Assembly: GCA_014435945.1 (NCBI GenBank)
Contig: GCA_014435945.1_4088.1
Direction: 5' to 3' (one strand)
DNA: 64,000 nucleotides
Source: a phage
Positions within the stretch are counted from its first letter, which is position 1. Each line of letters opens with the position of its first letter. Of the stretch, positions 19,424-63,885 are shown piece by piece. The position numbers and the translations under genes were made by a program. The notes beneath the pieces were generated by a model. The model saw only the letters and a program-made list of their open reading frames with translations, was not told where the DNA came from and did no database searches.

Positions 19424-19449
19424 TTTCATCAACTGATGAGGATAACGAA

Positions 19450-48999: not shown

Positions 49000-49124
49000 T
49001 TCAACATATAGACAGGGGAAGCTCCGCAGGGAAAGCATTGGACAGGCTTTAACATATGTTATATATGTTAAAATTCAGCCTGGACAAATGCGATCACTAG
49101 GATTCTCCCCAGGCTAAACCCCGT

Positions 49125-49410
49125 AATCATATGTAGTCATAAGTAATCATATATAAACATTTAAGTAATCATTTATAATCACAGTAGTGATCAGTAGTGA
49201 GTACTAGAGTGTAATAGAGTGTAATAGAGTACAGGAATGTGCACGTTTAATCAAGAACGTAGCAGTACTGCCCCAAAAGTATTCAGTACTGAAGGTGTCG
49301 ATATGCCACTAAGTAGGCAGAGGAAGTCTGCCGTACTTTGTAGTTTCCAAGCTCCTTTTCCATTTTGCAAATTACATCAAATGTAATCAAAAGTAATCAC
49401 GCAATGATTA
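49125..49410. repeat. cluster of short direct repeats (GTAATCA about 6 times; AGTGTAATAGAGT twice)
   Basis: Read directly in ORF-free region. Confidence 0.5.
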
Positions 49411-49448
49411 GTACTGAATTATTACTTTCACCTTAATTACAATTACCC

Positions 49449-49468
49449 TTTTACCCTTCGGGGTAAAA
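49449..49468 (+). other. perfect hairpin TTTTACCC-TTCG-GGGTAAAA (UUCG tetraloop) with no T-run
   Basis: 8-bp inverted repeat. Confidence 0.5.
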
Positions 49469-49686
49469 TTCCATTACCCCTTGAGGCTCCAGCAAAAAGT
49501 TGGTTAGTACTCCATCCTAAATCTCGATCCTAAAAATTTTGGAGTACCTATGAAATAAAAGTTGGATCTTCGAAAGTTGAAATTTACGTTGGGACGTTTA
49601 TGATTTGTGGGATATAATGATGTTTGTAGTCGGGTAGTTCTCAAGAATATCAGTACTGAATGGTGAAAGAAAGTTATTGACATTAT

Positions 49687-49716
49687 GATTCAGTACTGTA
49701 TAATGTTCTACATAGA
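49687..49716 (+). promoter_or_regulatory. orphan sigma70-like promoter (TTGACA-N17-TATAAT) with no ORF for over 1 kb
   Basis: ttgacattatgattcagtactgtataat. Confidence 0.45.
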
Positions 49717-50029
49717 GAGATGAGTTGCTGCGAACAATTCATTTACTCTACCTCCTGTCGTGAGACAGTACAGAAAAGATAGTTCCTCCTATTGGTGGTG
49801 CATCTTTTTGAACCTCATATGAAAATCGTAATAACAGTACTGATATTAACAGAATGGTATTAGTACTGATTTTAATCTAAAGCATTATGCCACCAGCTTG
49901 TGCTGGTGGATTCCCTCTAACAGTATTCAGTACTACATGATGGTCTTCATCCTCCTAGGGTAACATAGTGAGGGCTATGATGGCAGTACTGAATACTCCT
50001 TTCACAAGATAGATCTATGGTATAGTACT

Positions 50030-50225
50030 GACGGATTTTGGGCGTAGTTACCCTGGGTGGATTTTGGACGTAGATATGTCTAGCCCTCCAGAAGTCTGGA
50101 AGTAAAGATGGCTATCCATCTAGACGGCTAAACGGCTAGATTTCTAGATGGCTGTATGGCTAGACGTTTGGACGGCTAAACGGCTAGATGGTTACACGTC
50201 TGGATGTATAGACGGCTAAATCAAA
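50030..50225. repeat. iteron-like direct repeats: GACGGCTAAACGGCTAGAT twice (50123-50141, 50171-50189), partial copy at 50211, and GGATTTTGG(G/A)CGTAG twice
   Basis: Read directly. Confidence 0.6.
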
Positions 50226-50916
50226 ATTTTTATTTTGTTTTTTCCAATAGTTCCCCTACCGCGTGGGGATAGTTTCCCCGCAGTATCTGGAGTTAGATTT
50301 TTCTGAATCTGGAATCATTATCCCCGTTTTAGCCTGGTATGTCAACCGCCTGGATGAATATTTTTAAAAAATAATCTAGTACTGAATTTTGGGCGTAACT
50401 ATGCACCCGGTGGGCTTGAGTCTTTCTCGACTTGATGGAACTATTATACAGTACTGGAAAAATAAAGCAATACCCTGGAAGCAAAAAAGTTTTAATTAAT
50501 TTGCTTGCTATCCTGGGCCGGACTATGGTACTATATTTCAGTACTGAGAAAGTGCGTTTACCTGCTAGGGTGCGGGAGTGTATCCTTTTTAAATTTACTG
50601 AATTTTGGGCGTAATTCCGCACCCCCAGGGGTATCCGCTTTCTCGCGTCTATGTAGTAATTATACGCTTTTTCGGTGCTGAGTCAATAGCTAAAAACAAA
50701 ATAATTGAAAATAATTTAACGCGTTTAAACGGCCCGTAAAGCCCTGGTTAGCTGGTGGCGGTGCAAATGTATAGCTTAGGTGTATTAATGCGTTAGAATG
50801 CGATTGAGGACGTTTTACGGGGTATAGTACTGATTCAGTACTGAAAGATTGTTCTCCCTGGATTGTTCCAGTACTCCTATATAGAAAGAAAACTATTTTA
50901 AAAGTATTTGTAGAAA

Positions 50917-50950
50917 GTACTTGCAAAGTATTGGGAAAGGTGTAGAATGT
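50917..50950 (+). promoter_or_regulatory. sigma70-like promoter (TTGCAA-N16-TAGAAT) followed by leader hairpin
   Basis: Seen directly. Confidence 0.5.
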
Positions 50951-51005
50951 TTTACATCGAGACGGGGGATACGCTCCCGACTCACTTTTAAAAGAGATTA
51001 AAACG

Positions 51006-51368
51006 ATGGCGACTCAAATCAATACTATCATGCTTAACCTGGTTTCTTTCCGTGAAGAGATGAAAGATCTTCCCGCTGAGACTGTACGGATTCACATTGC
51101 AGCTTATCGGGAATTGATTGCAATGCTGCCGCTTAAGCGTGAACAGTACGCCGCTACTGCAATGCTGGACGCAATGATACATAAGATGATCCAGACTGAT
51201 TTAACGATGGCTTATCAGTACATGGGCGAAATGTTTGCAGTGTATAGCAAGCCAGTACCAGGAATGGAAAGTACAGAAGTATTACACGGCTTAAACTTAA
51301 AACAAGATGCATGGGATAATATGCCTCGTTTCCTGGTATGGGCTGATAGTGGAAAGATTTACGAATAA
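51006..51368 (+). CDS. hypothetical protein
   Basis: ORF track; promoter and hairpin upstream. Confidence 0.5.
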   Translation: MATQINTIMLNLVSFREEMKDLPAETVRIHIAAYRELIAMLPLKREQYAATAMLDAMIHKMIQTDLTMAYQYMGEMFAVYSKPVPGMESTEVLHGLNLKQDAWDNMPRFLVWADSGKIYE

Positions 51369-51375
51369 GTTTTTA

Positions 51376-51440
51376 AAAGTACTTGCAAAGTAAGTTTAAA
51401 GGCGTATAATACTTTACATCAGGTGGGGAATAGTTCCCCA
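51376..51440 (+). promoter_or_regulatory. right-region promoter unit: AGTACTTGCAA(-35)-N16-TATAAT then leader hairpin GTGGGGAA-tag-TTCCCCAC
   Basis: Same unit recurs before most genes from 51 to 64 kb. Confidence 0.6.
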
Positions 51441-51461
51441 CTATATAAGAGGATTAAAAAA

Positions 51462-51701
51462 ATGGCTAAATCAAAAATGTTCTTAGGTCACAAAAACAAA
51501 ACTCAATGGAATGTAAGCCTTTGGATTAATAACGACGAATCATTATACCGGTTGGCCCAGGACTTTATTGCCGCTAACACTAATCGTAATGATGCGGCCC
51601 GTCATATGATGCTATTTTTAGAACAGACTGGACAAGATAAAACGCCGGACGGCTTTAAGTATAGCACTACTGCGATCCGTGCGGCGATGGTTGGAATGTA
51701 A
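51462..51701 (+). CDS. hypothetical protein; paralog of 53854..54093
   Basis: Shared GHKNKTQWNVSLWINN..ESLYRLAQ...TPDGFKYSTTAIRAAMVGM. Confidence 0.55.
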   Translation: MAKSKMFLGHKNKTQWNVSLWINNDESLYRLAQDFIAANTNRNDAARHMMLFLEQTGQDKTPDGFKYSTTAIRAAMVGM

Positions 51702-51784
51702 TAGAATATATTAAAAGTACTATTGCACGGTGATAGTACTTTATAATAGTGTTTTATTCATACACCAACGATAAGGGTAACAGC

Positions 51785-52051
51785 ATGAATATTATATATT
51801 TTGCGACGCGTGAACAAGCTCGGATCGCCGCACGCCAGGACGGGGCGACGTTTAAAGATATGGGCGTACAATCGGAACGTGGTAAACGTTGGGCCATTGT
51901 AAAGCGTAGTACCGCCAGATCATTACAGTACTGGTTAGCGGCCTTAAAAAGACCCGATAGTGTATCGCGACGAGTGGTAGAAATAAAGCTCGACCGAAAG
52001 GGCAACCGCGTGACCGTGTACCGTACTAAAAAGATTGCAGTACTTGAATAA
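51785..52051 (+). CDS. hypothetical basic protein
   Basis: Internal ATG with AAGGG SD. Confidence 0.45.
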   Translation: MNIIYFATREQARIAARQDGATFKDMGVQSERGKRWAIVKRSTARSLQYWLAALKRPDSVSRRVVEIKLDRKGNRVTVYRTKKIAVLE

Positions 52052-52138
52052 AAAGTACTTGCAAACTAAGTTTAAAAGCGTATAATGTTTTACATCGAGA
52101 GCGGGAATAGTTCCCGCCTATAACCTGGAGTAATAAAA

Positions 52139-52369
52139 ATGACTAATATGTATATGACTGAAGTTAAAACCGTAAAAGATACTACCACTAATAAAACTAC
52201 TTACTTACAGCGGATCTGTGGTGTATGGCAACGTATCAGAAAATCAAAGTACTTTAAATTAACATCATATGCAAACCGTTCGGATTCATTCAGTACTGAA
52301 ATAAAAGGTAATAAAGTACACCAATACGGCACTTATTATTATTATAGCCTGGACGCGATTGCAGTATAA
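52139..52369 (+). CDS. hypothetical protein
   Basis: ORF track; promoter unit at about 52061. Confidence 0.45.
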   Translation: MTNMYMTEVKTVKDTTTNKTTYLQRICGVWQRIRKSKYFKLTSYANRSDSFSTEIKGNKVHQYGTYYYYSLDAIAV

Positions 52370-52639
52370 GCAGTTTACAAATCTTTACAATTGCCAGTAT
52401 TGACTTATTTTGTCAGTACTGGCATAATGTATTCATTGGCAGATAAGCCGTAGCCCATAGGGTGCGGAAGTGTATCTATAGAAAAAGTAGTTTAGTACAG
52501 TTACAATTGTGCACCCGGTGGGTTAGCTGTTGTCATGGGGTATATTATACCAGTACTGGATAGTGCTGTCAATACTTTTTTTACTATTCAGTACTGAAAA
52601 ACTATTTGATAAAAAGTACTTGCAAACTATGTTTAAAGG

Positions 52640-52735
52640 CGTATAATGTTTTACATCAGGACGGGGAACGAAATAAGTAACTTCCCGTTAAGTAGCCCAG
52701 GAGTAAGGCACACGAAAAACTCCCCTGATAAAATA
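52640..52735 (+). ncRNA. candidate structured RNA element between tandem promoters (copy 1)
   Basis: About 90-nt segment nearly identical to 63797-63885; compensatory change in ACGGGG/CCCCGT stem. Confidence 0.35.
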
Positions 52736-52797
52736 GTTTGACAATTGTTTTTAAAAGCGTATAATACTTACATAAACTACTGAATGAGGGTTACAAA

Positions 52798-53409
52798 ATG
52801 AAAACTATCACTACTACTACTTATGTTATGGATTTTTCTGAATTGAACGCAGAACAAAAAACGTCAGCTATCGAACTAGTTCGGGAACGTGAAAAAAACT
52901 CAAACGACGATTATTTTTCTGAAAGTGAAATTGAACACTATAAAGAAACAGTATTGCCGGAATATGGCATTAATGACGCTGAAATACAATTCAGTGGTTT
53001 TTGGTCCCAGGGTGACGGTGCATCAATCAGTACTGACCACGTTGACGCAGTGAAGTTTTTACGCAAGGTAAGAGCATTAACTAAGTATCGCTCAATCCGT
53101 CACCTGCTGAATGAAGATGATTTGGCGATGAGTGTAAAGCGTTCGCACTCCCACTACTCGCATGAGAATACTGTAAGCGGGTACATTGAATCGGCTTACA
53201 CTGATTTAACCGCAAAACAAGAAACGTTAGTTAATGAGCTTGAGGAACTACTCACTGACACTATTCGTGAATTATCCCGCAAGTTGTACCGTGATTTAGA
53301 GAATGCATATGAGGATCAATTCACTACTGAAAACATTACGGCACTGATTGAGGGTAACGAATATCAATTCAATGTTATTGATGGCGTAGTAGAATCAATC
53401 GAATATTAA
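52798..53409 (+). CDS. hypothetical acidic protein (203 aa)
   Basis: ORF track; SD GAGGG. Confidence 0.5.
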   Translation: MKTITTTTYVMDFSELNAEQKTSAIELVREREKNSNDDYFSESEIEHYKETVLPEYGINDAEIQFSGFWSQGDGASISTDHVDAVKFLRKVRALTKYRSIRHLLNEDDLAMSVKRSHSHYSHENTVSGYIESAYTDLTAKQETLVNELEELLTDTIRELSRKLYRDLENAYEDQFTTENITALIEGNEYQFNVIDGVVESIEY

Positions 53410-53502
53410 TTTAAAAAGTACTTGCAAACTAAGTTTAAAGGCGTATAATACTTTATATCGAGGCGGGGAGTGGTTCCCCGCTCATACTAAAAGGGTAACA
53501 AA

Positions 53503-53769
53503 ATGAAAACTTTAAATATCACAACTGCACATCAATTGGTTCGGGATGCGATGGATCATGTGCAAGATTTCTTCCCTGATGTAAGTGTAGTGACTTATGA
53601 AAAAGGTACTTGGACTTATTCAACAATTAACGGTTATGAGCCTGATTTTGATGATCTGGAAGAAATGGAATTTAATTTTGATCTGCTGAATGATGCCGCC
53701 CGTGAAGTGGGAAACGATGTTCAATACATTGATGGAGTAGTCGCACCTGATGCCGTAAAAGGATTATAA
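53503..53769 (+). CDS. hypothetical acidic protein
   Basis: ORF track; promoter unit upstream. Confidence 0.5.
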   Translation: MKTLNITTAHQLVRDAMDHVQDFFPDVSVVTYEKGTWTYSTINGYEPDFDDLEEMEFNFDLLNDAAREVGNDVQYIDGVVAPDAVKGL

Positions 53770-53853
53770 AAGTACTTGCAAACTAAGTTTAAAGGCGTAT
53801 AATACTTTATATCGAGGCGGGGAGTGGTTCCCCGCTCAAACGAGGATTAAAAA

Positions 53854-54093
53854 ATGGCTAGTACTAAAACTTACAACGGGCACAAAAACAAAACTCATTG
53901 GAATGTTTCCTTATGGATTAATAACGGTGAGTCATTGTATCGGCTTGCTCAAAGTTGCATCGCACAAAGTAGAACTAAAGATATTGCTGCGGAATGTATG
54001 TACCGCAGATTAAAAGCCAACGGTACTACTACAACGCCGGACGGATTCAAGTATAGCACTACGGCGATCCGTGCTGCAATGGTTGGAATGTAA
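53854..54093 (+). CDS. hypothetical protein; paralog of 51462..51701
   Basis: Shared motifs; identical promoter unit. Confidence 0.55.
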   Translation: MASTKTYNGHKNKTHWNVSLWINNGESLYRLAQSCIAQSRTKDIAAECMYRRLKANGTTTTPDGFKYSTTAIRAAMVGM

Positions 54094-54151
54094 TATTCAG
54101 TACTGTAACAATGGCGGGGAATGGTTCCCGCCTTTATTGAGGGTTTATCTA

Positions 54152-54412
54152 ATGAGTAAAGTAATTAACTATACAGTACTAAGCAAGTCATTATCTATTA
54201 GCCAGTGCACCGATGGTTATTGGTTTTATGATGAAACGCGTGGAATGAATTTAGCTATGCGTGCAAAAACTGCTGAGGCGGCGTATCTTGAGGCACTGGA
54301 ATACTACCAGGAACGTTTAACGGAAGTAGAAGAAGATTATAAAAGCCTCAAAGCGAAAGTAGATCATTTCGTCGGTCAATTCATCGAGGAAGACGCCGAC
54401 AAACAATATTGA
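54152..54412 (+). CDS. hypothetical protein
   Basis: Internal ATG with GAGGG SD. Confidence 0.45.
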   Translation: MSKVINYTVLSKSLSISQCTDGYWFYDETRGMNLAMRAKTAEAAYLEALEYYQERLTEVEEDYKSLKAKVDHFVGQFIEEDADKQY

Positions 54413-54498
54413 AAAAGTACTTGCAATTAGTTTTCAGTACTGTATAATGGTTTACATCAAAGGGAGAAATGGTTCTCCCTGGTAATGAGGAAAATAAA

Positions 54499-54720
54499 AT
54501 GGCTAATATCACTACTCTTTCCCAACTGGAAGCACTGGTTAAATCTATGCGGGAACATGCCGACAAAATCGGCGTACAAGATCCAGCCGTTTGCTTCTGC
54601 GACGAATTGAATGATGATACCCTGGTAATAGCAGAAGTCCAGGACGTTTCTAACTATTCCTCGCGTTACACTGGCGGCGTAGCAAATAAAGGTGACTTCT
54701 GTTTATACCTTACAAAATAA
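54499..54720 (+). CDS. hypothetical protein
   Basis: ATG after SD GAGGA. Confidence 0.5.
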   Translation: MANITTLSQLEALVKSMREHADKIGVQDPAVCFCDELNDDTLVIAEVQDVSNYSSRYTGGVANKGDFCLYLTK

Positions 54721-54963
54721 CAACGCGGGGAGATAATAACTCCCCGTTACTTTTTCAGTACTGAATCATTTAATAGACGGATCTCGGCACCCGGTGGGTT
54801 AGTGACTGTTTCGTCTTGATGTAGTAATTATGCCAGTACTGGATGCACTTGTCAACAATTATTTTCCAAATACTTTTTATTAAAATACTTGCTATTAGTT
54901 TTTAAACGCGTATAATGTTTTGCATAGGGGGAGCGGTTCCCCTGGTAACTAAGGAATAAGAAA

Positions 54964-55200
54964 ATGGTCGAACAAATCAAATCAACGTCTTCGAATGTAA
55001 CGGGAACGGTAGCACACTTTACTAGTGATGAATCGCGGGGCGTTCCCTATTGTGCTGTACATGTAAACACTGAGGGTAACTACTGGTTTACGGTTTACGG
55101 ATCATATTCATTTGGACGGCCAGGGCATCAAAAAATTCTGGATAAAGTACAACCAACGGGTAAAAATATCACTGCCGAAATGTTTTATAAAAAATCATAA
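54964..55200 (+). CDS. hypothetical protein
   Basis: ORF track. Confidence 0.5.
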   Translation: MVEQIKSTSSNVTGTVAHFTSDESRGVPYCAVHVNTEGNYWFTVYGSYSFGRPGHQKILDKVQPTGKNITAEMFYKKS

Positions 55201-55284
55201 AGTACTTGCAATTAGTTTTTAGTACTGTATAATATTTTACATCGCAAGGGGAAACGGTTTCCCCTGGTAACTAAGGATAATCAA

Positions 55285-55584
55285 ATGAAAGTAGCAATCA
55301 TCGCCCTGGCTTTATCTGTTTCCTCTTTCGCTGTTAATGCGTCGTTAGATGTACCTGGTGATAAATTCATTCAGTGCACCGTAGCAATGACAGATGAAAG
55401 TACTGGCGAGATTGTATTAAAGGATTTAGAGATCCAGCCGGAAGCATTTAAAAACGGCCCGTTCCATGAAGAAGACGAAAACGGTAGCACAACAATTTAT
55501 TATGATGCCAGTACTAAACGTGGTTCTGTCACTGTAATGGATACGGAGAAAGTAACTCACACCGGAGTAATTAACTGTTTATAA
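55285..55584 (+). CDS. secreted protein (signal peptide)
   Basis: N-terminus MKVAIIALALSVSSFAVNA. Confidence 0.55.
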   Translation: MKVAIIALALSVSSFAVNASLDVPGDKFIQCTVAMTDESTGEIVLKDLEIQPEAFKNGPFHEEDENGSTTIYYDASTKRGSVTVMDTEKVTHTGVINCL

Positions 55585-55666
55585 TAGTTTGACTATGTAT
55601 TACAGTACTGTATAATAGATACATAAGGGGCGAATAGTTTGCCCCTGGCATAAAGGGGAAAACATT

Positions 55667-55897
55667 ATGACAGCACGAATTGTTTTACTTAACGCTGGAA
55701 GTACTACACAACTCCTTAACGCCGTGCATTATGATATTGAAACGAGCGTTAATCTTATCAGTACTGTAGTACTATTGGACACTGGAAAGGTCGCCAATGA
55801 TAAAGCGATTGCAGGTATACTAACTGATCTCAAGCCTGGTAGCAGTACGCCAATAACGTTAAATGGCAAAGTGTTTAATATTTTACTTACTGATTAA
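55667..55897 (+). CDS. hypothetical protein
   Basis: ORF track. Confidence 0.45.
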   Translation: MTARIVLLNAGSTTQLLNAVHYDIETSVNLISTVVLLDTGKVANDKAIAGILTDLKPGSSTPITLNGKVFNILLTD

Positions 55898-55903
55898 GTA
55901 CAT

Positions 55904-55926
55904 AGCCCACCTGGTGGGCTTTTTTG
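55904..55926 (+). terminator. intrinsic terminator AGCCCAC-ctg-GTGGGCT plus T5
   Basis: Inverted repeat and T-run. Confidence 0.65.
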
Positions 55927-55994
55927 TTTTTGTAGTATCGTAGTACTGAGATACTTTAAAAATAGTTTTAAAAAAGTAGTTGACATTACCACAA

Positions 55995-56085
55995 AAAGGC
56001 GTAGAATGTATTACATCAAGACGGGGAGCACTAAGTAGACCGCCAGTAAGTCGAACGAAAAACTGGACACGTCGAGAAAACTTTG
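55995..56085 (+). ncRNA. candidate structured RNA element, divergent copy
   Basis: Shares acgggga...aagtag.cc..cagtaag..acgaaaaact with 52640 and 63797. Confidence 0.25.
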
Positions 56086-56130
56086 ATACACTAATAAACG
56101 TAAACTAAACTTTAATTGAGGATTTATAAA

Positions 56131-56613
56131 ATGGCTAATGTAAAATCATTCATCAAAGCACTGGTAGCAAATGAAACTAACGTCGCGGCAGAGATCCTGG
56201 CTGAACTGGATAACGATACCATGAAAGCGGTACGCAATAATTTTAACATCGCGTACAGTACTGCGAAAGAACTACAAGCAAATAAAGCGGCAGAAATTGA
56301 AGCGGCAAAGGCGGCCCGTGAAGCAGAACTACAAGCAACAATCGAAAGTATTCAGGCGGCAGTAGTTGGATTGGATCTGGAAGTAGTTACAGAGATGGCA
56401 CAAAAAGCCCTGGCGGTTAAGTATGGGGAAGACAAGCCAGAAGTAAAAGCCAAAAAATGGATTCAGGAACGCGTAGCGGTAGTACTGGACAACGGGGAAG
56501 AATATCTGATTCCGGTGCGTGGTAACTGCATTGCGGTAGTACTGGATGCGATTAACTCCAGTGGTATGACTCGCGAGGAATGGATCGAAGCTCATCGCAA
56601 AGTTGAAGCATAA
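56131..56613 (+). CDS. hypothetical Ala/Glu-rich protein
   Basis: ATG after SD GAGGA; track start 56116 is TTG. Confidence 0.5.
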   Translation: MANVKSFIKALVANETNVAAEILAELDNDTMKAVRNNFNIAYSTAKELQANKAAEIEAAKAAREAELQATIESIQAAVVGLDLEVVTEMAQKALAVKYGEDKPEVKAKKWIQERVAVVLDNGEEYLIPVRGNCIAVVLDAINSSGMTREEWIEAHRKVEA

Positions 56614-56634
56614 CAATTAAAGTACTGAATCACT

Positions 56635-56662
56635 AGCCCACCTTAAACGGTGGGCTTTTTTG
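56635..56662 (+). terminator. intrinsic terminator AGCCCACC..GGTGGGCT plus T6
   Basis: Inverted repeat and T-run. Confidence 0.65.
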
Positions 56663-56898
56663 TGTTTATCGTTTACCAGCTCCACATCACCGCCTAGAAA
56701 CGATTCTAACGCATTAAACTGATTATCTGATGCATTGCCCTAGCTGGTGGCGTTAAGGTCGTTGTAATGCGATTGAGAGCGTTTAAAGTATTTTGCAAAA
56801 AGTAATAAAAAGTACTTGCACGATTAAGAGATTAGCGTATAATGTTTTACATCGAGAGGGGGAAACGGTTCTCCTTCCAAATCAAAGGAATAAAAACA

Positions 56899-57126
56899 AT
56901 GGCTATTATCATTACTCGCGTATCTGGTACTACTGGCAACGAACAAGTAGTTGCAGTCATTACCAACAAGGAAGGTGCGGAATTGCAAAATGCAATGAAT
57001 ACCTGGGCCGTTAATGAGTTCGGTCAGTGGGCAAGTGTAGCATACATTGAAACCTATCAAGTGCCGTCGATTAGTTTAACTGATTTGGGCGTTGAGCGTA
57101 TCCTTTGCCTGGATGAATTAAATTAA
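56899..57126 (+). CDS. hypothetical protein
   Basis: ATG after SD AAGGAA. Confidence 0.5.
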   Translation: MAIIITRVSGTTGNEQVVAVITNKEGAELQNAMNTWAVNEFGQWASVAYIETYQVPSISLTDLGVERILCLDELN

Positions 57127-57212
57127 AAAAAGTACTTGCAAAGTAAATCGAATAAAGTATAATACATTACATCAAGGGGAGAAATGGTTCTCCCCACTAC
57201 AAGGAAACTAAA

Positions 57213-57356
57213 ATGAAAACTTGTCAATGTGGTCAGAAATCTATTACGGGTTTAAAGCGGGGCGTTGCTCTTTGCCAGTACCATTATAATTTACAAGTAT
57301 GGGGTAAAGAATGGGCCGACCAGGTGGAAGCAGCAAAGAAAGCAAAAAGTAAGTAA
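57213..57356 (+). CDS. putative 47-aa Cys-containing basic protein (MKTCQCGQKS...KAKSK)
   Basis: Read manually; promoter, hairpin and SD upstream. Confidence 0.4.
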   Translation: MKTCQCGQKSITGLKRGVALCQYHYNLQVWGKEWADQVEAAKKAKSK

Positions 57357-57435
57357 AAATATTATCACAGTACTATTGACATAGTTTGATAGTACTGGCA
57401 TAATAGATTTTATCAAGACAACTGAGGAAAATAAA

Positions 57436-57648
57436 ATGGCTATCATCACTAAAATCAAAGTTAACAAATCACTGGTTAAGCTGGAAGAAGTGAAAGAAGG
57501 TTATAAAGTATCTTGGTGCGGCATGTATCGGATATTCACTGATATTGATGACGCAATCAATTATTACAGCGACACGGTTAAAAACTTTGTTCGTGCTGAT
57601 GTGGTTATGGCAGTGGCAACGCACAAAGCAGCGAAAGAAAGTAAGTAA
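57436..57648 (+). CDS. hypothetical protein
   Basis: ORF track; same 3' end and downstream promoter as 57213..57356. Confidence 0.5.
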   Translation: MAIITKIKVNKSLVKLEEVKEGYKVSWCGMYRIFTDIDDAINYYSDTVKNFVRADVVMAVATHKAAKESK

Positions 57649-57737
57649 AAATATTATCACAGTACTATTGACATAGTTTGATAGTACTGGCATAATAGAT
57701 TTTATCAAGACAACATATTAATTTAAGGAATACAAAA

Positions 57738-58061
57738 ATGGCTAAAACTATCATTAACACCGTTTCCCTGGCTGCAATCCGTGCAATCAATGTTGACGGT
57801 AAACGTTGGACTGATTCATATGGCAATACTTATCATTCTTGTCATGTAAGCGTTGAACTGGATAACGGTTTGAATGATCTGGCGGTTGAATCATTTACTT
57901 ATGGCTATGAAGATGCATATCAACAAACGGCGTTATCTCTCTTAAAGGAATCAGTAGACGGGCTTAATACTGATGAAACCTCCCTTACTCGTGTGTGCAA
58001 TGATCTTAATATCCCGTTGCATTGTACTGTACAGAATGTTAAACGCAAAAAAGATCTTTAA
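57738..58061 (+). CDS. hypothetical protein
   Basis: ORF track. Confidence 0.5.
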   Translation: MAKTIINTVSLAAIRAINVDGKRWTDSYGNTYHSCHVSVELDNGLNDLAVESFTYGYEDAYQQTALSLLKESVDGLNTDETSLTRVCNDLNIPLHCTVQNVKRKKDL

Positions 58062-58141
58062 TTAGCTTTACTTTATGCAGATACTTTGATATAGTGTCTG
58101 CATAGGGGAAAGAAATTAAATTAACTTAAGAGGATCGTATA

Positions 58142-58411
58142 ATGAAAAATATCAGTACTTTAATCGATGCAGGTACTCATGTTCGTCGGTCTATGGTTGC
58201 AACCAGTACTACAAAACAAGTAGCGAGCGGTTATCTTGTATTTGTGCACGATGGTAAACTCCTGGAACGTTCAATCAATTTTGATGTTAAAAACAATTGC
58301 CGTTTTATTATCTTTAAGCGTGAGCAATATAAAATTGATTTACCAGCAAAGCCCATTAGTGGGGCGTACAACGTGCAATCATTGTTTGAACGTCAACCAT
58401 ACACCTATTAA
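58142..58411 (+). CDS. hypothetical protein
   Basis: ORF track; SD GAGGA. Confidence 0.5.
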   Translation: MKNISTLIDAGTHVRRSMVATSTTKQVASGYLVFVHDGKLLERSINFDVKNNCRFIIFKREQYKIDLPAKPISGAYNVQSLFERQPYTY

Positions 58412-58462
58412 TCAAAACATCGTTAGCGGTCGATTCAGGCCGCTTATATTGGGGATTATACC

Positions 58463-58735
58463 ATGAACGTTAATCAAGTACTGAATGAGATCGAAAGCAT
58501 CATTAAACCGATGAAGCGTACTGATGCTATGTTAACACCGGAAGAATGCCGCCTTTATGAGCGTTACAGCGTCGAACAAGTCCAGGCAATGGCTATGGCT
58601 ACCCCAGCCGTTAAACCGCCTGAGAATGCGTTACAGGACGTTACAGGGGATTATATCATCAATCCAGTACTAGGGAAGATGGCTGCAATCACCGAAGATC
58701 AACAAGACTACTTAAGCCAGTACTTAAAAGGTTAA
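58463..58735 (+). CDS. hypothetical protein
   Basis: ORF track. Confidence 0.5.
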   Translation: MNVNQVLNEIESIIKPMKRTDAMLTPEECRLYERYSVEQVQAMAMATPAVKPPENALQDVTGDYIINPVLGKMAAITEDQQDYLSQYLKG

Positions 58736-58740
58736 TTAAT

Positions 58741-58950
58741 ATGCTTACTGTACAGGATAAGATCGACATCTTAAAGGTTAATATGTATGTGATTGATGCC
58801 GTACCTGGTAAAGTATTTGCATACGATGACACTACTGTAAGCGATTTCTACTATAGCCAGGCCGTGGGGGATCTTTCTGTACAGTCGGTTATTGAAAACG
58901 TAGTTAATGCAGCGTATGAGCATTTACTTTCAAATAGTACTTGCAATTAG
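58741..58950 (+). CDS. hypothetical protein
   Basis: ORF track. Confidence 0.45.
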   Translation: MLTVQDKIDILKVNMYVIDAVPGKVFAYDDTTVSDFYYSQAVGDLSVQSVIENVVNAAYEHLLSNSTCN

Positions 58951-59019
58951 TTTTTAAACGCGTATAATGTTTTACATGAAGGGGAGAAATGATTCTCCCC
59001 ACTAATTAAGGAATATGAA

Positions 59020-59166
59020 ATGAAAGCATCAAAAAAGAGTACTAACAAGAAAGCACGTTCAACCTTAGATGGGGTATTCCCTTTACGTTTTGTTGATGAA
59101 GTAGTTTCCTACCCGCCGGGCCTTACTCCTGAGATGGTAGAAAGTTTGCGTAAATCTAAAAAATAG
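59020..59166 (+). CDS. putative 48-aa basic protein (MKASKKSTNKKARS...)
   Basis: Read manually; promoter, hairpin and SD AAGGAA upstream. Confidence 0.4.
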   Translation: MKASKKSTNKKARSTLDGVFPLRFVDEVVSYPPGLTPEMVESLRKSKK

Positions 59167-59248
59167 TACTTGCAATTAGTTTTTAGTACTGTATAATAGT
59201 TTACATGAAGGGGAAAACGTTCCCCTTACACCTAACGAGGAAAGTATA

Positions 59249-59500
59249 ATGGAAACAATTTTAATCAAAGACACTGCTACTACTGTAACTTATGATAATG
59301 ATTGCATTATCCCAGGGACTGAGTACGGCGAACGTGTACCCGTTCAAGTAGAGATTGATACCACATACATCGACAAGGCTGACCAGTGTATCACTATTGT
59401 AATTGGTGAATATCGTTTTCTACCAGAAGAGATCCAAAAATGGCAGAATATGATTGACCGTGCGAAATTAGTCGCACAAAGTTTAAAATACAAAGTTTAA
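59249..59500 (+). CDS. hypothetical protein
   Basis: ORF track. Confidence 0.5.
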   Translation: METILIKDTATTVTYDNDCIIPGTEYGERVPVQVEIDTTYIDKADQCITIVIGEYRFLPEEIQKWQNMIDRAKLVAQSLKYKV

Positions 59501-59586
59501 AATAATACTTGCAATTAGTTTTTAAACGCGTATAATGTTTTACATGAAGGGGAGAAATGATTCTCCCCAATAACAGGAGAAACAAA

Positions 59587-59739
59587 ATGAAACAATACAA
59601 CGCTCGGTTTGATGTTACTATCGGTAACGGCAAAGGTCAATTCTCTTTCAGTACTCGCAAAAGTTATACAGAAAACTTCCTGCGTAATTGTGCACTGACC
59701 GCCGCACAAATTAAACATTACTTTCAGGCTAAAAAATGA
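59587..59739 (+). CDS. putative 50-aa protein
   Basis: ATG after SD AGGAGA. Confidence 0.4.
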   Translation: MKQYNARFDVTIGNGKGQFSFSTRKSYTENFLRNCALTAAQIKHYFQAKK

Positions 59740-59825
59740 AATCATTAGCTTATTACAGTTCGGCCCTGGTCGGTGCATTGATCGCGGCATTGTTAGTAAC
59801 CTATCTATTCTTTATGGTGATTTAA
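59736..59825 (+). CDS. putative 29-aa single-TM peptide (MKSLAYYSSALVGALIAALLVTYLFFMVI)
   Basis: Read manually; ATGA overlap with upstream stop. Confidence 0.3.
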   Translation: MKSLAYYSSALVGALIAALLVTYLFFMVI

Positions 59826-59969
59826 ATGAATCCAACAGGCTTAAATTATAAAAGTTGTTCGGCGTTTACGAAAGCAAATAAAGCGAATGCACGTAAAGCG
59901 AAAGTACAGGAATACATCAAGCAAGGCATGACGCGAAAGGCGGCGATTCTAAAAGCTAAAAATAAATGA
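59826..59969 (+). CDS. putative 47-aa basic protein
   Basis: Read manually; directly follows previous stop. Confidence 0.35.
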   Translation: MNPTGLNYKSCSAFTKANKANARKAKVQEYIKQGMTRKAAILKAKNK

Positions 59970-59974
59970 AAAAA

Positions 59975-60010
59975 GTGGTTGACTCCGGTCAGCCATTTTG
60001 CTATTATATA
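59975..60010 (+). promoter_or_regulatory. PeSL-like terminator-promoter cassette
   Basis: gtggttgactccggtcagccattttgctattat. Confidence 0.6.
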
Positions 60011-60179
60011 TTCATTGAGAGATAGCTCACTAGCCCACAGGGTGCATAAGTGTATCTATTATATAAGTATTGAGTACTGAAAACTATTTTTAAAAAGTAC
60101 TTGCAAACTATCTCAATAAGCGTATAATGTTTTACATCGCAAGGGGAAATGGTTTCCCCTGGTAATAAGGAAACGAATC

Positions 60180-60521
60180 ATGACTATCTCAATTGCTCAA
60201 TCTAACTTTGAAAATGAAATCATCGCCCAGGCACTGCGTTTAAATGATGGTCGGGCCGAAATTAATTACGGTTTCAATTCAGGCGGTTGTGAAAAATATC
60301 AGTACTTTGTAACGGCTGATGGCGGTGTCCTGGGGATCAATACAGTTATTGTAAACATTCAGAAAATTAATTTCAATGATCCAGAAGATAGCCAGTTTTA
60401 CATCACGGGCGTGAACGTGAACTATGAGGATGATTATCTAACTGATGATCACACTGGCGAGAAGTTAGAAAGTGCATACGGTGAAGATGATTATCAGTCC
60501 GGTCCAGAAGATTTCGAATAA
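60180..60521 (+). CDS. hypothetical acidic protein
   Basis: ORF track. Confidence 0.5.
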   Translation: MTISIAQSNFENEIIAQALRLNDGRAEINYGFNSGGCEKYQYFVTADGGVLGINTVIVNIQKINFNDPEDSQFYITGVNVNYEDDYLTDDHTGEKLESAYGEDDYQSGPEDFE

Positions 60522-60616
60522 TATAAAAAATAGTTTGACAATAGATTATAGTACTGTATAATAGTTTACATCAAGGGGAGAGATGATTCTCCCCACTAAC
60601 AGAGAGAGAAAACAAA

Positions 60617-60799
60617 ATGGCTGAATTAATCGCTCGGAATACAATTGAAGGCATTGAAGATGTAACGTTGTCCTATGATTCAGATAAAAAAGTTTATGTT
60701 GTTCGTTATGGTTTGATTGGTGTTAACGTTGATTATATTGATGAAGCCTTTGAAAAATACTTTGAATTTATTAATATGGCTTATAATGATTATCGTTAA
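60617..60799 (+). CDS. hypothetical protein
   Basis: ORF track. Confidence 0.5.
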   Translation: MAELIARNTIEGIEDVTLSYDSDKKVYVVRYGLIGVNVDYIDEAFEKYFEFINMAYNDYR

Positions 60800-60889
60800 A
60801 AAATAGTTTGACAATAGTTTTAAGTACTGTATAATAGTTTTCATCAAGGGGAGAAAAACTTCTCCCCACTAACAGAGAGAGAAAGCAAA

Positions 60890-61102
60890 ATGGCTAATAT
60901 CTGCACTGTACTGAAAAATGCAAAACAAGTTTTATTTTCTGATCACGATCATTTAAACAAGGATATTACGGGCGTTCGGAATATCAAAGATGTAAAAAGT
61001 GTTATGGGTATCTATTGCAATATGAAACGTGTTGGTACGTTCGGCGACAAAGTACTATACCAGGCAGGGGATTATAACTTTACATTAACCATTATCAATT
61101 AA
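60890..61102 (+). CDS. hypothetical protein
   Basis: ORF track. Confidence 0.5.
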   Translation: MANICTVLKNAKQVLFSDHDHLNKDITGVRNIKDVKSVMGIYCNMKRVGTFGDKVLYQAGDYNFTLTIIN

Positions 61103-61192
61103 AATATATTACCAGTACTATTGACAACGTTTGATAGTACTGTATAATAAGTTTTATAAACAGTAGTTAACTTAACCTAAGAGAGAAACAAA

Positions 61193-61336
61193 ATGATCGC
61201 ACTGGATTCATTCATCGACGCAGTACTGGCAAAAACTGGCGAGGATCTGACCGCAGAACAATACGCGATGATCGAGCAATGTCAGCAAAACGGTAAATCG
61301 GTGAAAGATACTGTTAAGATTATCCGCAAGATGTAA
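61193..61336 (+). CDS. putative 47-aa protein (MIALDSFIDAVLAK...)
   Basis: Read manually; promoter at 61120-61150; SD GAGAGA; terminator follows. Confidence 0.4.
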   Translation: MIALDSFIDAVLAKTGEDLTAEQYAMIEQCQQNGKSVKDTVKIIRKM

Positions 61337-61342
61337 GATTAT

Positions 61343-61370
61343 AGCCCACTGGTTAACGCTGGTGGGCTTT
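61343..61370 (+). terminator. probable terminator hairpin AGCCCAC..GTGGGCT with short T tail
   Basis: Inverted repeat. Confidence 0.45.
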
Positions 61371-61441
61371 AATCATTTACCCTATACAATGCCAGTACTA
61401 AACCGTTTATCTCGTTAGAATGCGTTACAGGACGTTTAACA

Positions 61442-61639
61442 ATGATTAGCATGAAATCAGTACAAAAACAAATAGAAACATTATCAAAAATTAAACGTAA
61501 ACAATACTCCTTAGAATATACAATCAATGGTAACTATCATCTAATGAAAGAAAATAATTTTATAGTCATTGATGAATCATTGCAAATTATTAGTATAGTA
61601 CTGAAAGCATTAATCAATGACAGAAAAAAATTAAAATAA
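61442..61639 (+). CDS. hypothetical protein
   Basis: ORF track. Confidence 0.4.
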   Translation: MISMKSVQKQIETLSKIKRKQYSLEYTINGNYHLMKENNFIVIDESLQIISIVLKALINDRKKLK

Positions 61640-61968
61640 TCTATTGACAATATCCTCCAGTACTGGCATAATACTTACATCAAGACGAGAACGTCACTAA
61701 CCCATAGGGTGCACAAATGTAACTATATAATATCGATCAATAAATGATCAAAAAAGTACTGGATCAATTTAGCATAAGGAGTATAATTCTGATCAATTCT
61801 TGATCAAAGGCAATAAACGCAGTTGAATTTATATAGACAATACAAAGGCGTTACTATCCGTGGTAATGCTGGTGGATATGTAGTATCATATGGTTTGAAT
61901 AAGATAAACACTAGTAGTATTATTGTAGCATTACAGTACTATAGTATTTTTATAATGAGGTTAAAATA

Positions 61969-62226
61969 ATGGCTGTAGGATTTGCGAAGGACGGGGCCGA
62001 ACAAGACGAGATTAACGCAGTGATTCAGGCCGCTGTAAACCACGCTAGAAAGCAAATTAACGCACAAAGAGAATCACTGGTACATTGCCTCGACTGCGGC
62101 GATAAAATTCCTGAGAATCGACGCCAGGCCGTTATAGGGTGCATGTATTGTATTACTTGCCAGGAGGATCATGATAGTACTTTTAAAAGAGATCCGCGTA
62201 ATTGTTGGCATAGATCTATGAGATAA
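61969..62226 (+). CDS. TraR/DksA-family C4 zinc-finger protein
   Basis: CLDCGDKIPENRRQAVIGCMYCITCQ matches the CxxC-N17-CxxC DksA/TraR signature. Confidence 0.7.
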   Translation: MAVGFAKDGAEQDEINAVIQAAVNHARKQINAQRESLVHCLDCGDKIPENRRQAVIGCMYCITCQEDHDSTFKRDPRNCWHRSMR

Positions 62227-62290
62227 AAAGTAATTGACAGTACTGAAAGATAGTGTATAATGTTTTATATCTTAACTGAGGATAGAAATC

Positions 62291-62647
62291 ATGGGAATAC
62301 AACATATCACGCGTACTACTGACAATGGCGAGATCACTGGTTATCAAGTACAGGGCAAAGTAGCACAATTGCAGTACTGGTTTGTTAAACGTGGAATCAT
62401 TGCACCGGATCTTGATTATGACCGTGTAGCGTTTATTGATTCTCTTTATGTTGATCCTGATAGTCGGGGCAATGGTGAAGGTAACGAATTAATGAATGCC
62501 TTTATCGATGCCGCCGATGATTCAGATTGTATCATCTTAGAATGCGATACGGGAGAAGATAACGCCTTTAATCTTAAAGAATGGTACGAAGGTTTCGGAT
62601 TCGAGGTATTGATAGATAGTGAATATCCTATCATGATTTTATCATAG
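62291..62647 (+). CDS. possible small GNAT-like acetyltransferase
   Basis: Weak motif-A-like segment VDPDSRGNGEGNELMNAF. Confidence 0.35.
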   Translation: MGIQHITRTTDNGEITGYQVQGKVAQLQYWFVKRGIIAPDLDYDRVAFIDSLYVDPDSRGNGEGNELMNAFIDAADDSDCIILECDTGEDNAFNLKEWYEGFGFEVLIDSEYPIMILS

Positions 62648-62725
62648 TACTTGCATTTAGTTTTCAGTACTGTTATAGTACTTGCATCAAGGGGAAACAT
62701 CTTCCCCTACTAAGAGGAAATAAAA

Positions 62726-62914
62726 ATGGAAAACTTATCAAGTATTTTAGTACAAGATGATTTCGGTAATCCTGGAAGTGCTATCATTGTTCGGGGTAAT
62801 AAAGCAACGTTTGTTATTGCTGGTGGACCCGTACAGCGTAGCATTAAAAATAATGCTGTTACCATTAATAATGTACGCTATCGCTTAGATAAAGAATTAA
62901 TTCATAAACTGTAA
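62726..62914 (+). CDS. hypothetical protein
   Basis: ORF track. Confidence 0.5.
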   Translation: MENLSSILVQDDFGNPGSAIIVRGNKATFVIAGGPVQRSIKNNAVTINNVRYRLDKELIHKL

Positions 62915-62999
62915 AAAAGTACTGGACAATAGATTATAGTACTGTATAATAAGTTACATGAAGGGGAGAAATGATTCTCCCCACTAAGAGGAAAGAAAA

Positions 63000-63212
63000 A
63001 TGCAAGGTCAACTAATCGTTCGTAAATGGTCTGATACTAACGCTAAACCGTGGGATGTACAATACATCGCCCCCAATGGTGAATCACGTTATCAGCCAGG
63101 TGTAACGCATAGTACTGAGCAATTCGCCGCCGCTCACCGTGAACGCCTGTTACAATCAATGCAGCAAGGTTTCGGTGAAAAATTCATTCAGGATCATTGG
63201 CTGAAAGATTAA
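63000..63212 (+). CDS. hypothetical protein
   Basis: ORF track. Confidence 0.5.
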   Translation: MQGQLIVRKWSDTNAKPWDVQYIAPNGESRYQPGVTHSTEQFAAAHRERLLQSMQQGFGEKFIQDHWLKD

Positions 63213-63298
63213 AAAGTACTTGCACTGTACTGAATAAAGTGTATAATGTTTTATATCGGAAGGGGAATAGTTCCCCTCCGAACAAAGAGGAAAGTATA

Positions 63299-63472
63299 AT
63301 GGTCCAGGTAGAATTAACAGTACTGAAAGATCTGTTTTATCGGATTGGTACTACTGGCGAATATCCGAAGGGTGATAATGCAAAACTTTACGTATCACTC
63401 GACTTATGGCAACGCGAACAATTAGCAACGGCCTGGCGTAAAGGCAAAGCAGATAGCGAGGTGAAAGCATGA
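63299..63472 (+). CDS. hypothetical 57-aa protein
   Basis: ATG after SD AGAGGAAAG. Confidence 0.45.
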   Translation: MVQVELTVLKDLFYRIGTTGEYPKGDNAKLYVSLDLWQREQLATAWRKGKADSEVKA

Positions 63473-63618
63473 AAGAATTCTTATTTGAAGTAGTGTTTCA
63501 AGGTGTCGGTAGTAACCAACTGATTCGCTCAAGTGGTTATAATGTTAACCAGGCATGGAATAACATTAAACAAATGTACCCGAACGCTATCACATATCGC
63601 AACCCGAAAGAAGTTTAA
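63469..63618 (+). CDS. putative 49-aa protein
   Basis: Read manually; ATGA overlap with upstream stop. Confidence 0.35.
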   Translation: MKEFLFEVVFQGVGSNQLIRSSGYNVNQAWNNIKQMYPNAITYRNPKEV

Positions 63619-63634
63619 AAATAATTGAAAAAGG

Positions 63635-63668
63635 GATTGACTCCGGTCAGTCCCTTTGCTATTATATA
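63635..63668 (+). promoter_or_regulatory. PeSL-like terminator-promoter cassette
   Basis: gggattgactccggtcagtccctttgctattat. Confidence 0.6.
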
Positions 63669-63796
63669 CGCATAGAAACAAATCAGCCCACAGGGTGCAT
63701 AAATGTATCTATTGTTTGCTGGTGGCTAGTACTGAAAACTATTTTTAAAAAGTACTTGCATTGTACTTAGAATAAAGTATAATGTTTTACATCAGG

Positions 63797-63885
63797 ACGG
63801 GGAACGAAACAAGTAACCCCGTTAAGTAGTCCAGGAGTAAGACATACGAAAAACTCCCCTGATAAAATAGTTTGACAATAGAAAG
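63797..63885 (+). ncRNA. candidate structured RNA element between tandem promoters (copy 2)
   Basis: Near-identical to 52640-52735. Confidence 0.35.

Follow-up and report, generated by a model that had tools for sequence, protein, structure and literature searches.

The DNA analysed here is a stretch of 64,000 nucleotides (nt) from a phage (NCBI GenBank assembly GCA_014435945.1, contig GCA_014435945.1_4088.1), called the window below, and we have mainly focused on its region 49000-50990, which separates a run of small paralogous genes from the many small genes that follow. From the sequence, a first-pass annotation had described this region as rich in repeats and free of credible open reading frames (ORFs), and had proposed that it is a replication origin, a packaging site or a locus of non-coding RNA (ncRNA). 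On the evidence of ~90-93% identity, the window is from an Asteriusvirus-type jumbo coliphage of the 121Q/PBECO4/G17 group. Since a conserved 17-mer returned only RaK2 and 121Q in IMG/VR, the comparative set was taken from GenBank phage records. There, 42 phage records matched the 2.2 kb around the region with 80-95% identity, all of them coliphages with jumbo genomes (348-386 kb) and Salmonella phages that belong to the 121Q/PBECO4/G17 group (genus Asteriusvirus). The counterpart of the region in 121Q is an unannotated gap from gp265 to gp266, and the genes flanking the region belong to PHROGs of unknown function. Alignments were made with 15 Asteriusvirus sequences, and identity was measured relative to the window. 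The features discussed are collected in Table 1.

The region is very probably the boundary between unique Asteriusvirus DNA and a direct terminal repeat (DTR) of ~21 kb, with a terminase cut at 49311/49312 followed by a non-coding leader that would act in cis. Homology to mapped relatives places the cut that terminase would make in replicating concatemers at this position, within …GATATGCCACTA / AGTAGGCAGAGGAAGTC…, and the start of one virion end at 49312. The record ends of seven relatives that carry a DTR (G17, BF17, fEgEco12, vB_Ec-M-J, WPEC5, CRJP21 and E9.1) all align to 49312, and the repeat runs rightwards from there. Because these ends map to 49312, we divide the region into a spacer of 312 bp, the cut site, and a non-coding leader of 1694 bp that extends up to the first DTR gene. 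Homology to the same mapped relatives indicates that the leader would precede ~60 small early genes that have individual promoters.

The repeat itself is documented in several ways. Many relatives of 366-384 kb had two matches to the query, ~19-21 kb from a record end. Positions 1-20668 of G17 are identical to 350150-370817, i.e., an exact direct repeat of 20,668 bp with zero mismatch, direct terminal repeats are annotated at 1..21525 in vB_Ec-M-J, and the records of vB_Ec-M-J, Muenster and fENko-Kae01 carry repeat_region annotations. A redundancy of ~20 kb in G17 is visible in read coverage (Korf et al., PMC6563267), and for Sharanji, which is near-identical to G17, a DTR of 20,668 bp was obtained by PhageTerm (PMC11895373). 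For fEgEco12, PhageTerm gave 20,993 bp, and the end fragments were confirmed with restriction digests (PMC13070987). The window shows a single copy of the DTR, across the junction. While papers on these relatives have already located the end, the cut motif, the order of modules across genera and the small structured units described below appear to be undescribed, as far as literature could be found; the leader is not described in the papers on G17, UE-S1, fEgEco12, Sharanji, phAPEC6 and CBB.

Table 1. Positions of genes and sequence features in and around the DTR boundary (window coordinates; distances from the cut are signed, minus being outside).
Feature	Position	Strand	Details
RCC1-like gene array	22.7-44 kb	-	
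Run of ~60-aa paralogues	44-49 kb	+	last member 48793-48999
Unique-side spacer, non-coding	49000..49311		312 bp
GTAATCA-type heptamer cluster	49123-49181	+	3 exact and degenerate copies; -189 to -130 outside cut; block identity ~0.85
Cut-site context GATATGCCACTA / AGTAGGCAGAGGAAGTC	49300..49328	+	7 record ends and cross-genus likeness
DTR	49312..64000, continuing past window end	+	20,668 bp in G17/Sharanji; 20,993 bp in fEgEco12; 21,525 bp in vB_Ec-M-J
Hairpin GGCAGA-ggaag-TCTGCC	49316-49332	+	begins 5 nt inside end; kept in most Asteriusvirus
Two GTAATCA and inverted TAATCA	49383-49410	+	+72 to +98 inside cut; one extra copy in vB_Ec-M-J
43-nt element AGTACTCCATCCTAAATCTCGATCCTAAAAATTTTGGAGTACC	49506-49548	+	two ATCCTAAA half-sites in 8-bp inverted repeat
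Consensus sigma-70 promoter	49677-49704	+	points into DTR; 366 nt from end
Candidate structured RNA T1, ~195 nt	49711-49905	+	five hairpins, GUGA-looped one at 49755-49768; start and end inferred
Tandem array, 14 head-to-tail 8-bp units A(C/T)GGCTA(A/G)	50108-50219	+	
Element TTTTCCAATAGTTCCCCTACCGCG	50240-50263	+	after T-rich stretch following array
Promoter-like TTGACA-17-GATAAT	50317-50345	-	11/12; towards end; same-type site at matching place in Munch/fENko-Kae01
Unit A	50380-50449	-	TATAAT, stem-GAGAAA-stem (GTC/GAC), GGGTG...CGCCC; weak -35 in window
Unit C	50505-50590	+	weak promoter TTGCTA-18-TACTAT, GAGAAAGTG, hairpin 50567-50586 then TTTTT (terminator-like)
Unit B with promoter	50596-50686	-	TTGACT-16-TATAAT (50686-50659; 11/12), stem-GAGAAA-stem (CGC/GCG), GGGTG...CGCCC
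Promoter of first DTR gene	from 50921	+	AGTACTTGCAA-16-TAGAAT
5' hairpin of first DTR gene	50963-50979	+	
First DTR gene	51006-51368	+	120 aa; phrog_7352, unknown function; intact in 14/15 relatives
Many small genes	after gap	+	own promoter each

Weak matches to the leader were found also outside Asteriusvirus, near the record starts of jumbo phages of Klebsiella (Muenster, RaK2, K64-1 and fENko-Kae01) and Salmonella (Munch and 7t3), and of Serratia BF, Yersinia fHe-Yen9-04, Cronobacter GAP32, Erwinia and Xanthomonas XbC2 phages. The matching patches have 67-82% identity and lie near record starts or annotated DTR starts, several of them inside repeat regions annotated from PhageTerm, and non-coding leaders of 1.1-1.8 kb are present in all those records. 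Ends were transferred from Muenster to the permuted RaK2 record, from XbC2 to GAP32 and Kaldavass, and from Munch to 7t3. When the sequence outside the cut is written before a slash and the sequence inside after it, the left-end junctions are gatatgccacta / AGTAGGCAGAGGAAGTC for Asteriusvirus, gatatgccacta / AGTCCGTTTATAAAGTC for Alcyoneusvirus, ccccttccacta / TATCTGTTCCTGAAGTC for Mimasvirus, ccccttccgcta / TATCTGTTCCTGAAGTC for Kaldavass and ccccttccgcta / TATCTTCTCTGTATAAG for the Munch group. The right ends, given as reverse complements, are cgaagtcgcta / AGGTTA for G17 and fEgEco12, aaaagtgcta / AGCCTA for Muenster and cgggtggcta / AGGCAT for fENko-Kae01.

Every reported end, left or right, in the five lineages therefore reads RCTA^(A/T)(G/A), where ^ marks the cut, and the motif is inverted at one end relative to the other. 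Asteriusvirus and Alcyoneusvirus share all 12 nt outside the cut, and gatatgccacta^AGT with AAGTC at +13 is found identically in RaK2, at the position that corresponds to the PhageTerm-defined end of Muenster. Directly before the end, GAP32, 7t3 and Kaldavass have ccacta^ or ccgcta^, and AAGTC occupies +13 to +17 in four left ends. CCACTA-N12-AAGTC has a single occurrence in the 64-kb window. Beyond a few bases at the cut, no extended similarity was found between left and right DTR boundaries. Since the two kinds of end are otherwise dissimilar, the recurrent motif is not explained by common descent of the flanks, which speaks for the accuracy of the reported ends and for conservation of a site-specific cut. 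No paper describing the cut motif was found, within a limited literature search. Among the roles proposed in the first-pass annotation, that of a packaging site is supported by the genome end of the relatives, which falls inside the region, and by the conservation of the cut motif across genera.

The lack of credible ORFs is borne out by comparison. ORFs of at least 30 aa number 12 in the region. Of these, 11 are interrupted or lacking in the majority of 14 relatives; the remaining one (44 aa, TTG start, 50605-50739) is open across the relatives only because the underlying DNA is nearly invariant, and the substitutions in it are all non-synonymous. PHANOTATE/Pharokka-style annotations of some relatives place 6-10 tiny ORFs in the region, which would agree with unrecognised small protein genes filling the gap. 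However, these calls are inconsistent between records, indels are often not multiples of three, and no Shine-Dalgarno sequence was seen upstream of the two longest ORFs, inspected by eye; together with the broken reading frames and the purely non-synonymous changes in the one that persists, this makes small protein genes a highly improbable explanation. No tRNA (transfer RNA) or tmRNA (transfer-messenger RNA) gene was found by an ARAGORN scan. Searches of Rfam 15, at the gathering score for the window and in E-value mode for the region, gave no family, and chance matches to eukaryotic small nucleolar RNA and microRNA families only.

Identity to the window is lowest at 49180-49300, where it is 0.51-0.64 with many indels, and it rises to 0.87 from 49300. 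The rest of the leader has mostly 0.87-0.98, with a few lower 40-nt bins (minimum 0.66 at 50300-50340), and the first DTR gene has only 0.75-0.86. Three segments, 49500-49620, 50380-50600 and 50700-50740, hardly vary at all, even in EJP2 with its overall identity of only ~75%. Judged from these alignments, the non-coding leader is more strongly constrained than the neighbouring genes. No match to the leader was found in 5,426 complete E. coli genomes, and mimicry or capture of host DNA is therefore unlikely. The record of CMSTMSU (MH494197, labelled "UNVERIFIED_ORG") has many deletions of 1-5 nt against all other relatives, even within conserved genes. Because these are probably sequencing errors, CMSTMSU was excluded from the structure counts.

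The repeats, hairpins and promoter listed in the first-pass annotation are all present in the sequence, with corrections of coordinate and count for the promoter and for AGTACTG. The heptamer GTAATCA is not enriched in the window as a whole (17 observed, 15.1 expected), but a span of 277 bp (49123-49399) contains 5 of the 17, each of them on the + strand. The cluster outside the cut may represent candidate recognition repeats, and the sites inside the cut mirror it. TTTTGGRCG has four copies in the 64-kb window, all of them in the region and on the + strand (50036, 50062, 50387 and 50603), and the two copies of (G/A)AATTTTGGGCGTAA are the starts of a 70-nt repeat (50380-50449 and 50596-50665; 71% identical). 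The perfect 8-bp hairpin at 49449-49468, TTTTACCC-TTCG-GGGTAAAA, is kept in most Asteriusvirus and absent in EJP2 and CMSTMSU. The other perfect hairpin, CCACCAGC-TTGT-GCTGGTGG at 49881-49900, was labelled a terminator by the G17 annotators, but no T-run follows it. Its loop is ACAA in SHEFM2K, BF17, vB_Ec-M-J, CRJP21, E9.1 and WPEC5, i.e., the whole palindrome is flipped while the stem is unchanged. The 43-nt element has ~0.98 identity within the genus and a tandem duplication in EJP2, and it is recognisable ~75-240 nt from the end in XbC2, Munch/fENko-Kae01 and GAP32.

The iteron-like repeat GACGGCTAAACGGCTAGAT does occur at 50123 and 50171 as described, but both copies are part of a longer array of 14 units of 8 bp, which has weaker super-periods of 16, 24 and 48 bp. 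The copy number varies among relatives, mostly in 8-bp steps. GGCTA arrays are found also in XbC2, GAP32, Serratia BF and Kaldavass, at +680 to +900 counted from the end, and in Yersinia fHe-Yen9-04, the record of which begins within the leader. The T-rich stretch after the array has ~23 nt (50220-50245), and the element that comes next is recognisable as TTCCAWTAG-YTCCCCTWCCGCG in six lineages; the form in Muenster is more diverged. Phages of Klebsiella (Muenster 780-905 and 1080-1100) and Salmonella (Munch 700-800) hold Fur-box-like tandem repeats, GATAATGATTCTCATTT, in the slot of the array. This suggests that the leader module may be able to swap its bound protein, possibly to host Fur. 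Three possibilities for the 8-bp array are a docking site for the terminase ring, origin repeats, or part of an injection pause signal. The length of 12-14 units of 8 bp is close to that thought to wrap small-terminase rings, and the docking idea is speculation.

If the region were a replication origin, the array would be iterons for a phage initiator, the T-rich stretch would unwind, and convergent promoters would prime replication or form an R-loop. The GC skew of the + strand flips from ~-0.2 to +0.12 exactly at 49000-49500, with genes on both sides on the + strand, and the minimum of cumulative GC skew falls in the region, as far as the visible 64 kb of ~350 kb can tell. The tandem array is followed by TCAAAATTTTTATTTTGTTTTTT, and several genera have conserved both the array and the element behind it. 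Dense, partly antisense promoters, which would be another point of likeness, resemble those of RNA-primed origins such as ColE1 and T4 oriF/oriG. However, the repeat period of 8 bp differs from the 17-22 bp of classical iterons, the copy number varies freely among relatives, and Klebsiella and Salmonella relatives have a different, Fur-box-like repeat in the position of the array. No DnaA box (TTWTNCACA) was found in 48900-51100, nor is this box enriched window-wide, and no initiator gene was identified among the adjacent genes, which are in families of unknown function. The skew boundary could also mark two gene modules of differing composition. The flip in GC skew and the repeat array are no more than hints of an origin; we consider an origin unlikely, while noting that origin and terminus are mutually compatible. 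As a side observation, the ~60-aa paralogues at 44-49 kb, on the + strand, have a GC skew of ~-0.2 and an AT skew of ~+0.2, and the DTR genes on the same strand have a GC skew of ~+0.1.

The orphan promoter of the first-pass annotation is real, with 12 of 12 bases of TTGACA-16-TATAAT, though it lies at 49677-49704 and not at 49687. Both hexamers are invariant in all 15 sequences, EJP2 included, and Muenster has TTGACA-17-TATAAT at +271. Downstream of it lies T1, a candidate structured RNA whose predicted fold has -66.4 kcal/mol (z = -5.8) on the + strand and -51.6 kcal/mol (z = -3.3) on the - strand. RNAalifold with 10 sequences gave compensatory two-sided changes in 7 of the 53 consensus pairs of T1, one of them in the hairpin with the GUGA loop. 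T1 has no conserved ORF.

Three further units, A to C, share a plan that consists of a -10-like hexamer, a spacer of ~12 nt, a 3-bp stem closing a GAGAAA loop, and GGGTG...CGCCC. Unit B is present in Muenster, Munch, XbC2, GAP32 and Kaldavass. Unit C is nearly invariant within the genus and has versions in GAP32, Serratia BF, Yersinia, XbC2 and Munch, and Muenster carries TTGCAA-18-TATAAT upstream of CAGTACTGAGAAAGTGC...GCTAGGGTGC, which is of the unit C type. Unit C, the only one with a hairpin and a T-run, would yield an RNA of ~50 nt, and since units B and C are convergent, their products would be antisense to each other. The promoter-like sites, the array and the units lie at comparable distances from the end in several genera. 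In a set of 11 units taken from six lineages, pairing holds in 96.5% of cells, and shuffled controls reach 83.3 +/- 2.3%. Two-sided changes (CGC/GCG, GTC/GAC, CGG/CCG and GAG/CTC) affect every one of the three pairs of the first stem. The second stem stays paired and changes only via G-U and U-A, which is compatible only with the strand downstream of the promoter. The third, central hairpin (CCCC-N3-GGGG) was left out of the scoring, since it has an ambiguous register and too short a loop.

These results make the ncRNA locus of the first-pass annotation plausible, on account of the conserved consensus promoter, the strand-asymmetric folding and some compensatory changes. Going further, the region might be primarily a cluster of ncRNA genes (T1 and units A to C) acting in trans in host takeover, and its position at the genome end would then be incidental. 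The fold of T1, the compensatory pairs in T1 and the units, the changes in the second helix that fit only the promoter-proximal strand, and the conserved promoters would all agree with this, and two highly expressed ncRNAs are known from the DTR of PA5oct (PMC7318152). Since no Rfam match was obtained, the stems are short (3-5 bp), and the conserved context of the cut site, the tandem array and the 43-nt element would be left unexplained, we regard it as possible but doubtful, and prefer the DTR boundary with a cis-acting leader.

The first-pass annotation had counted at least 15 AGTACTG(A) motifs in the region, which is slightly high; 49000-50990 holds 14 AGTACTG, 19 AGTACT and 11 AGTACTGA. 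Nor is the motif a local feature, since AGTACT is the most over-represented hexamer window-wide (266 observed, 21.7 expected). This 12-fold enrichment consists mostly of CAGTACT or AGTACTG, with 58 full CAGTACTG palindromes. Within long ORFs, AGTACT is 3-fold above a synonymous-codon shuffle in all three frames (74 vs 24.9 +/- 4.3), and all loci sampled from six Rak2-like lineages, the Xanthomonas phage included, show a 15-27-fold enrichment. AGTACTG was therefore rejected as a local signal, being genome-wide and clade-wide. In each of the five lineages, a copy of AGTACT is found at a distance of 11-21 nt from the left cut, on its outer side. A literature search for CAGTACTG in phages found primer sequences only. 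A recurrent early-promoter module, aaAGTACTTGCAA-N16/17-TATAAT-gttttACATC, stands before at least 15 small DTR genes in 50916-63790 (e.g., at 51378, 52054, 52615, 53417, 53771, 57131 and 60096). Some of these modules have a second AGTACTG abutting the -10, ~20 bp downstream of the first, as expected of a regulator site that overlaps the promoter.

On the side of unique DNA, the RCC1-like array consists of 17 tandem paralogues of ~370-400 aa (22763-43931, minus strand). One of its genes was scanned (42765-43931) and matched phrog_4219, "regulator of chromosome condensation", and G17 has an annotated terminator after most genes of the array. Right after the last gene on the unique side there is a long imperfect inverted repeat (48991-49111), which may be the terminator of the upstream gene run; it gave a chance-level match to a plant microRNA precursor model on both strands.

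Several points weigh against the interpretation as a DTR boundary with a functional leader. In this isolate, the end was placed by homology (~90% identity), and G17 may have served as the template for re-orienting some of the seven records, whose ends would then not be independent mappings. The paper on UE-S1 gives a different DTR of 8.3 kb, which the authors of fEgEco12 regard as mis-assigned (PMC13070987). At ~1813, in the interior of its record, UE-S1 (ON568341) has the cut motif intact (CCACTAAGTAGGCAGAGGAAGTC), and this supports the view of the latter authors. The number of promoter-like sites in the region is not above that in shuffles (10 vs 9.4), and for this reason only conserved promoters with high scores were used as evidence. 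T1 has no U-tract terminator, the score of the units is inflated relative to slid controls because the structure was hand-drawn from the same sequences, and the hairpins of the leader could act at the level of DNA. The array is 800 bp from the cut, which is beyond the distances of recognition sites in the pac systems known to us.

With the region taken as a DTR boundary, we propose the following mechanism. Specificity of the cut would come from the conserved bases (12 nt outside and AAGTC at +13), perhaps with the flanking GTAATCA heptamers and the 43-nt element, and the 8-bp array may also contribute to the specificity of terminase. Host RNA polymerase would be recruited at the consensus promoter near the end and at several weaker, partly antisense promoters. 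The former, 366 nt from the end, would fire inward into the ~195-nt structured RNA, and the three paralogous promoter-plus-hairpin units, two leftward and one rightward, would make short, partly antisense RNAs; some products of the leader would thus be small structured RNAs.

A bolder picture, which we offer tentatively and consider unlikely to hold in all its parts together, regards the leader as an ancient cis-acting module of the sampled Rak2-like jumbo phages, whose hosts range from E. coli to Xanthomonas. Its parts would be the cut motif RCTA^WR with AAGTC at +13, an 8-bp array that docks the small terminase ring or stalls entry, and a family of convergent antisense small RNAs, which would keep their order and similar distances from the end. 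In the same picture, CAGTACTG would be the site of a phage-encoded global DNA-binding protein, acting at early promoters as well as beside the cut site.

The cut motif has a practical use. Most deposited genomes of the group (121Q, PBECO4, RaK2, GAP32 and many others) are arbitrary circular permutations in which the terminal repeat is left out. With CCACTA^AGT-N9-AAGTC for Asteriusvirus and Alcyoneusvirus and CCRCTA^TATCT for the others, true ends could be placed from sequence alone, and doubtful assignments of ends, such as that of UE-S1, can be flagged. No other non-coding DNA near the end is as constrained as the leader, in a 350-kb genome more than 80% of which has no known function. This makes the leader an obvious target for studies on the choice of the packaging start, the onset of transcription by host polymerase and stepwise, T5-like delivery of DNA, and in phage engineering this region must be kept intact.

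The comparison with T4 ori regions suggested in the first-pass annotation is not relevant here; the relevant phages are those with long DTRs such as T5, and T7. The closest analogue appears to be the untranslated repeat region 3 (iss region) of T5, at the inner boundary of the terminal repeat. This region of 1662 bp with dense repeats and palindromes lies across the inner edge of the 10-kb repeat, shows higher conservation than the ORFs of the repeat, and has been proposed as an injection stop signal (Davison, bioRxiv 10.1101/866236). Both phages have a long DTR with small early genes and ~1.7 kb of non-coding DNA across the junction of DTR and unique DNA, which is more conserved than adjacent ORFs and is present in a further copy at one extremity of the virion DNA (bioRxiv 10.1101/866236), and with the present genome oriented like G17 the topology is the same. 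The two differ in that there is no sequence similarity, the DTR here is twice as long, the lineage is that of a T4-related jumbo myovirus, the paired DnaA boxes within large inverted repeats that have been proposed for T5-like phages are absent, and the region analysed here has no inverted repeat longer than 23 nt. Because of the lack of sequence similarity and of paired DnaA boxes, the likeness is a functional analogy and not membership.

By this analogy, the other end of the DTR might enter the host first, and the inner copy of the leader might halt or pause entry after ~21 kb of early genes. The T5-like topology, with 1694 bp inside and 312 bp outside the DTR and an equal contrast in conservation, speaks for such a stop, as does the high early transcription of DTR genes in the relative PA5oct (PMC7318152). 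Neither DnaA boxes like those proposed for T5 nor any sequence similarity to it is present here, and an inward consensus promoter near the end fits T7-like entry with this end first equally well. Moreover, two-step injection has, to our knowledge, never been reported for the group, and we judge an injection stop even less likely than an origin. The left end of T7 (Dunn and Studier 1983) reportedly has a fixed end, an array of short repeats (SRL, 7-8 bp), and a non-coding stretch in which host-type early promoters A1-A3 point inward before the first gene. The leader would thus resemble it in the fixed end, the 7-8-bp array near the end, and the strong inward promoters over several hundred non-coding bp. 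The T7 repeat is said to be 160 bp and not 21 kb, the T7 array reportedly abuts the repeat, there is no homology, and the leader here also has outward-facing promoters. The T7 analogy would imply that the leader end enters first.

The pac site of P1 (Sternberg and Coulby) is said to have hexamers on both sides of the cleavage point, four and three in number. Here too, short repeats flank the cut, the GTAATCA heptamers outside (-189 to -130) and inside (+72 to +98) being candidate sites only; P1 differs in that it reportedly packages by headful from pac with permuted ends, and its elements lie within 162 bp and include Dam sites. PA5oct has two highly expressed RNAs without ORFs, located 8 and 22 kb into its 39-kb DTR, for which the authors report no sequence similarity outside PA5oct/MIJ3 (PMC7318152). 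As a distant relative in the same Rak2-like group, PA5oct shares with the phage analysed here a long DTR that carries early genes and ncRNAs, the latter being predicted in the present case.

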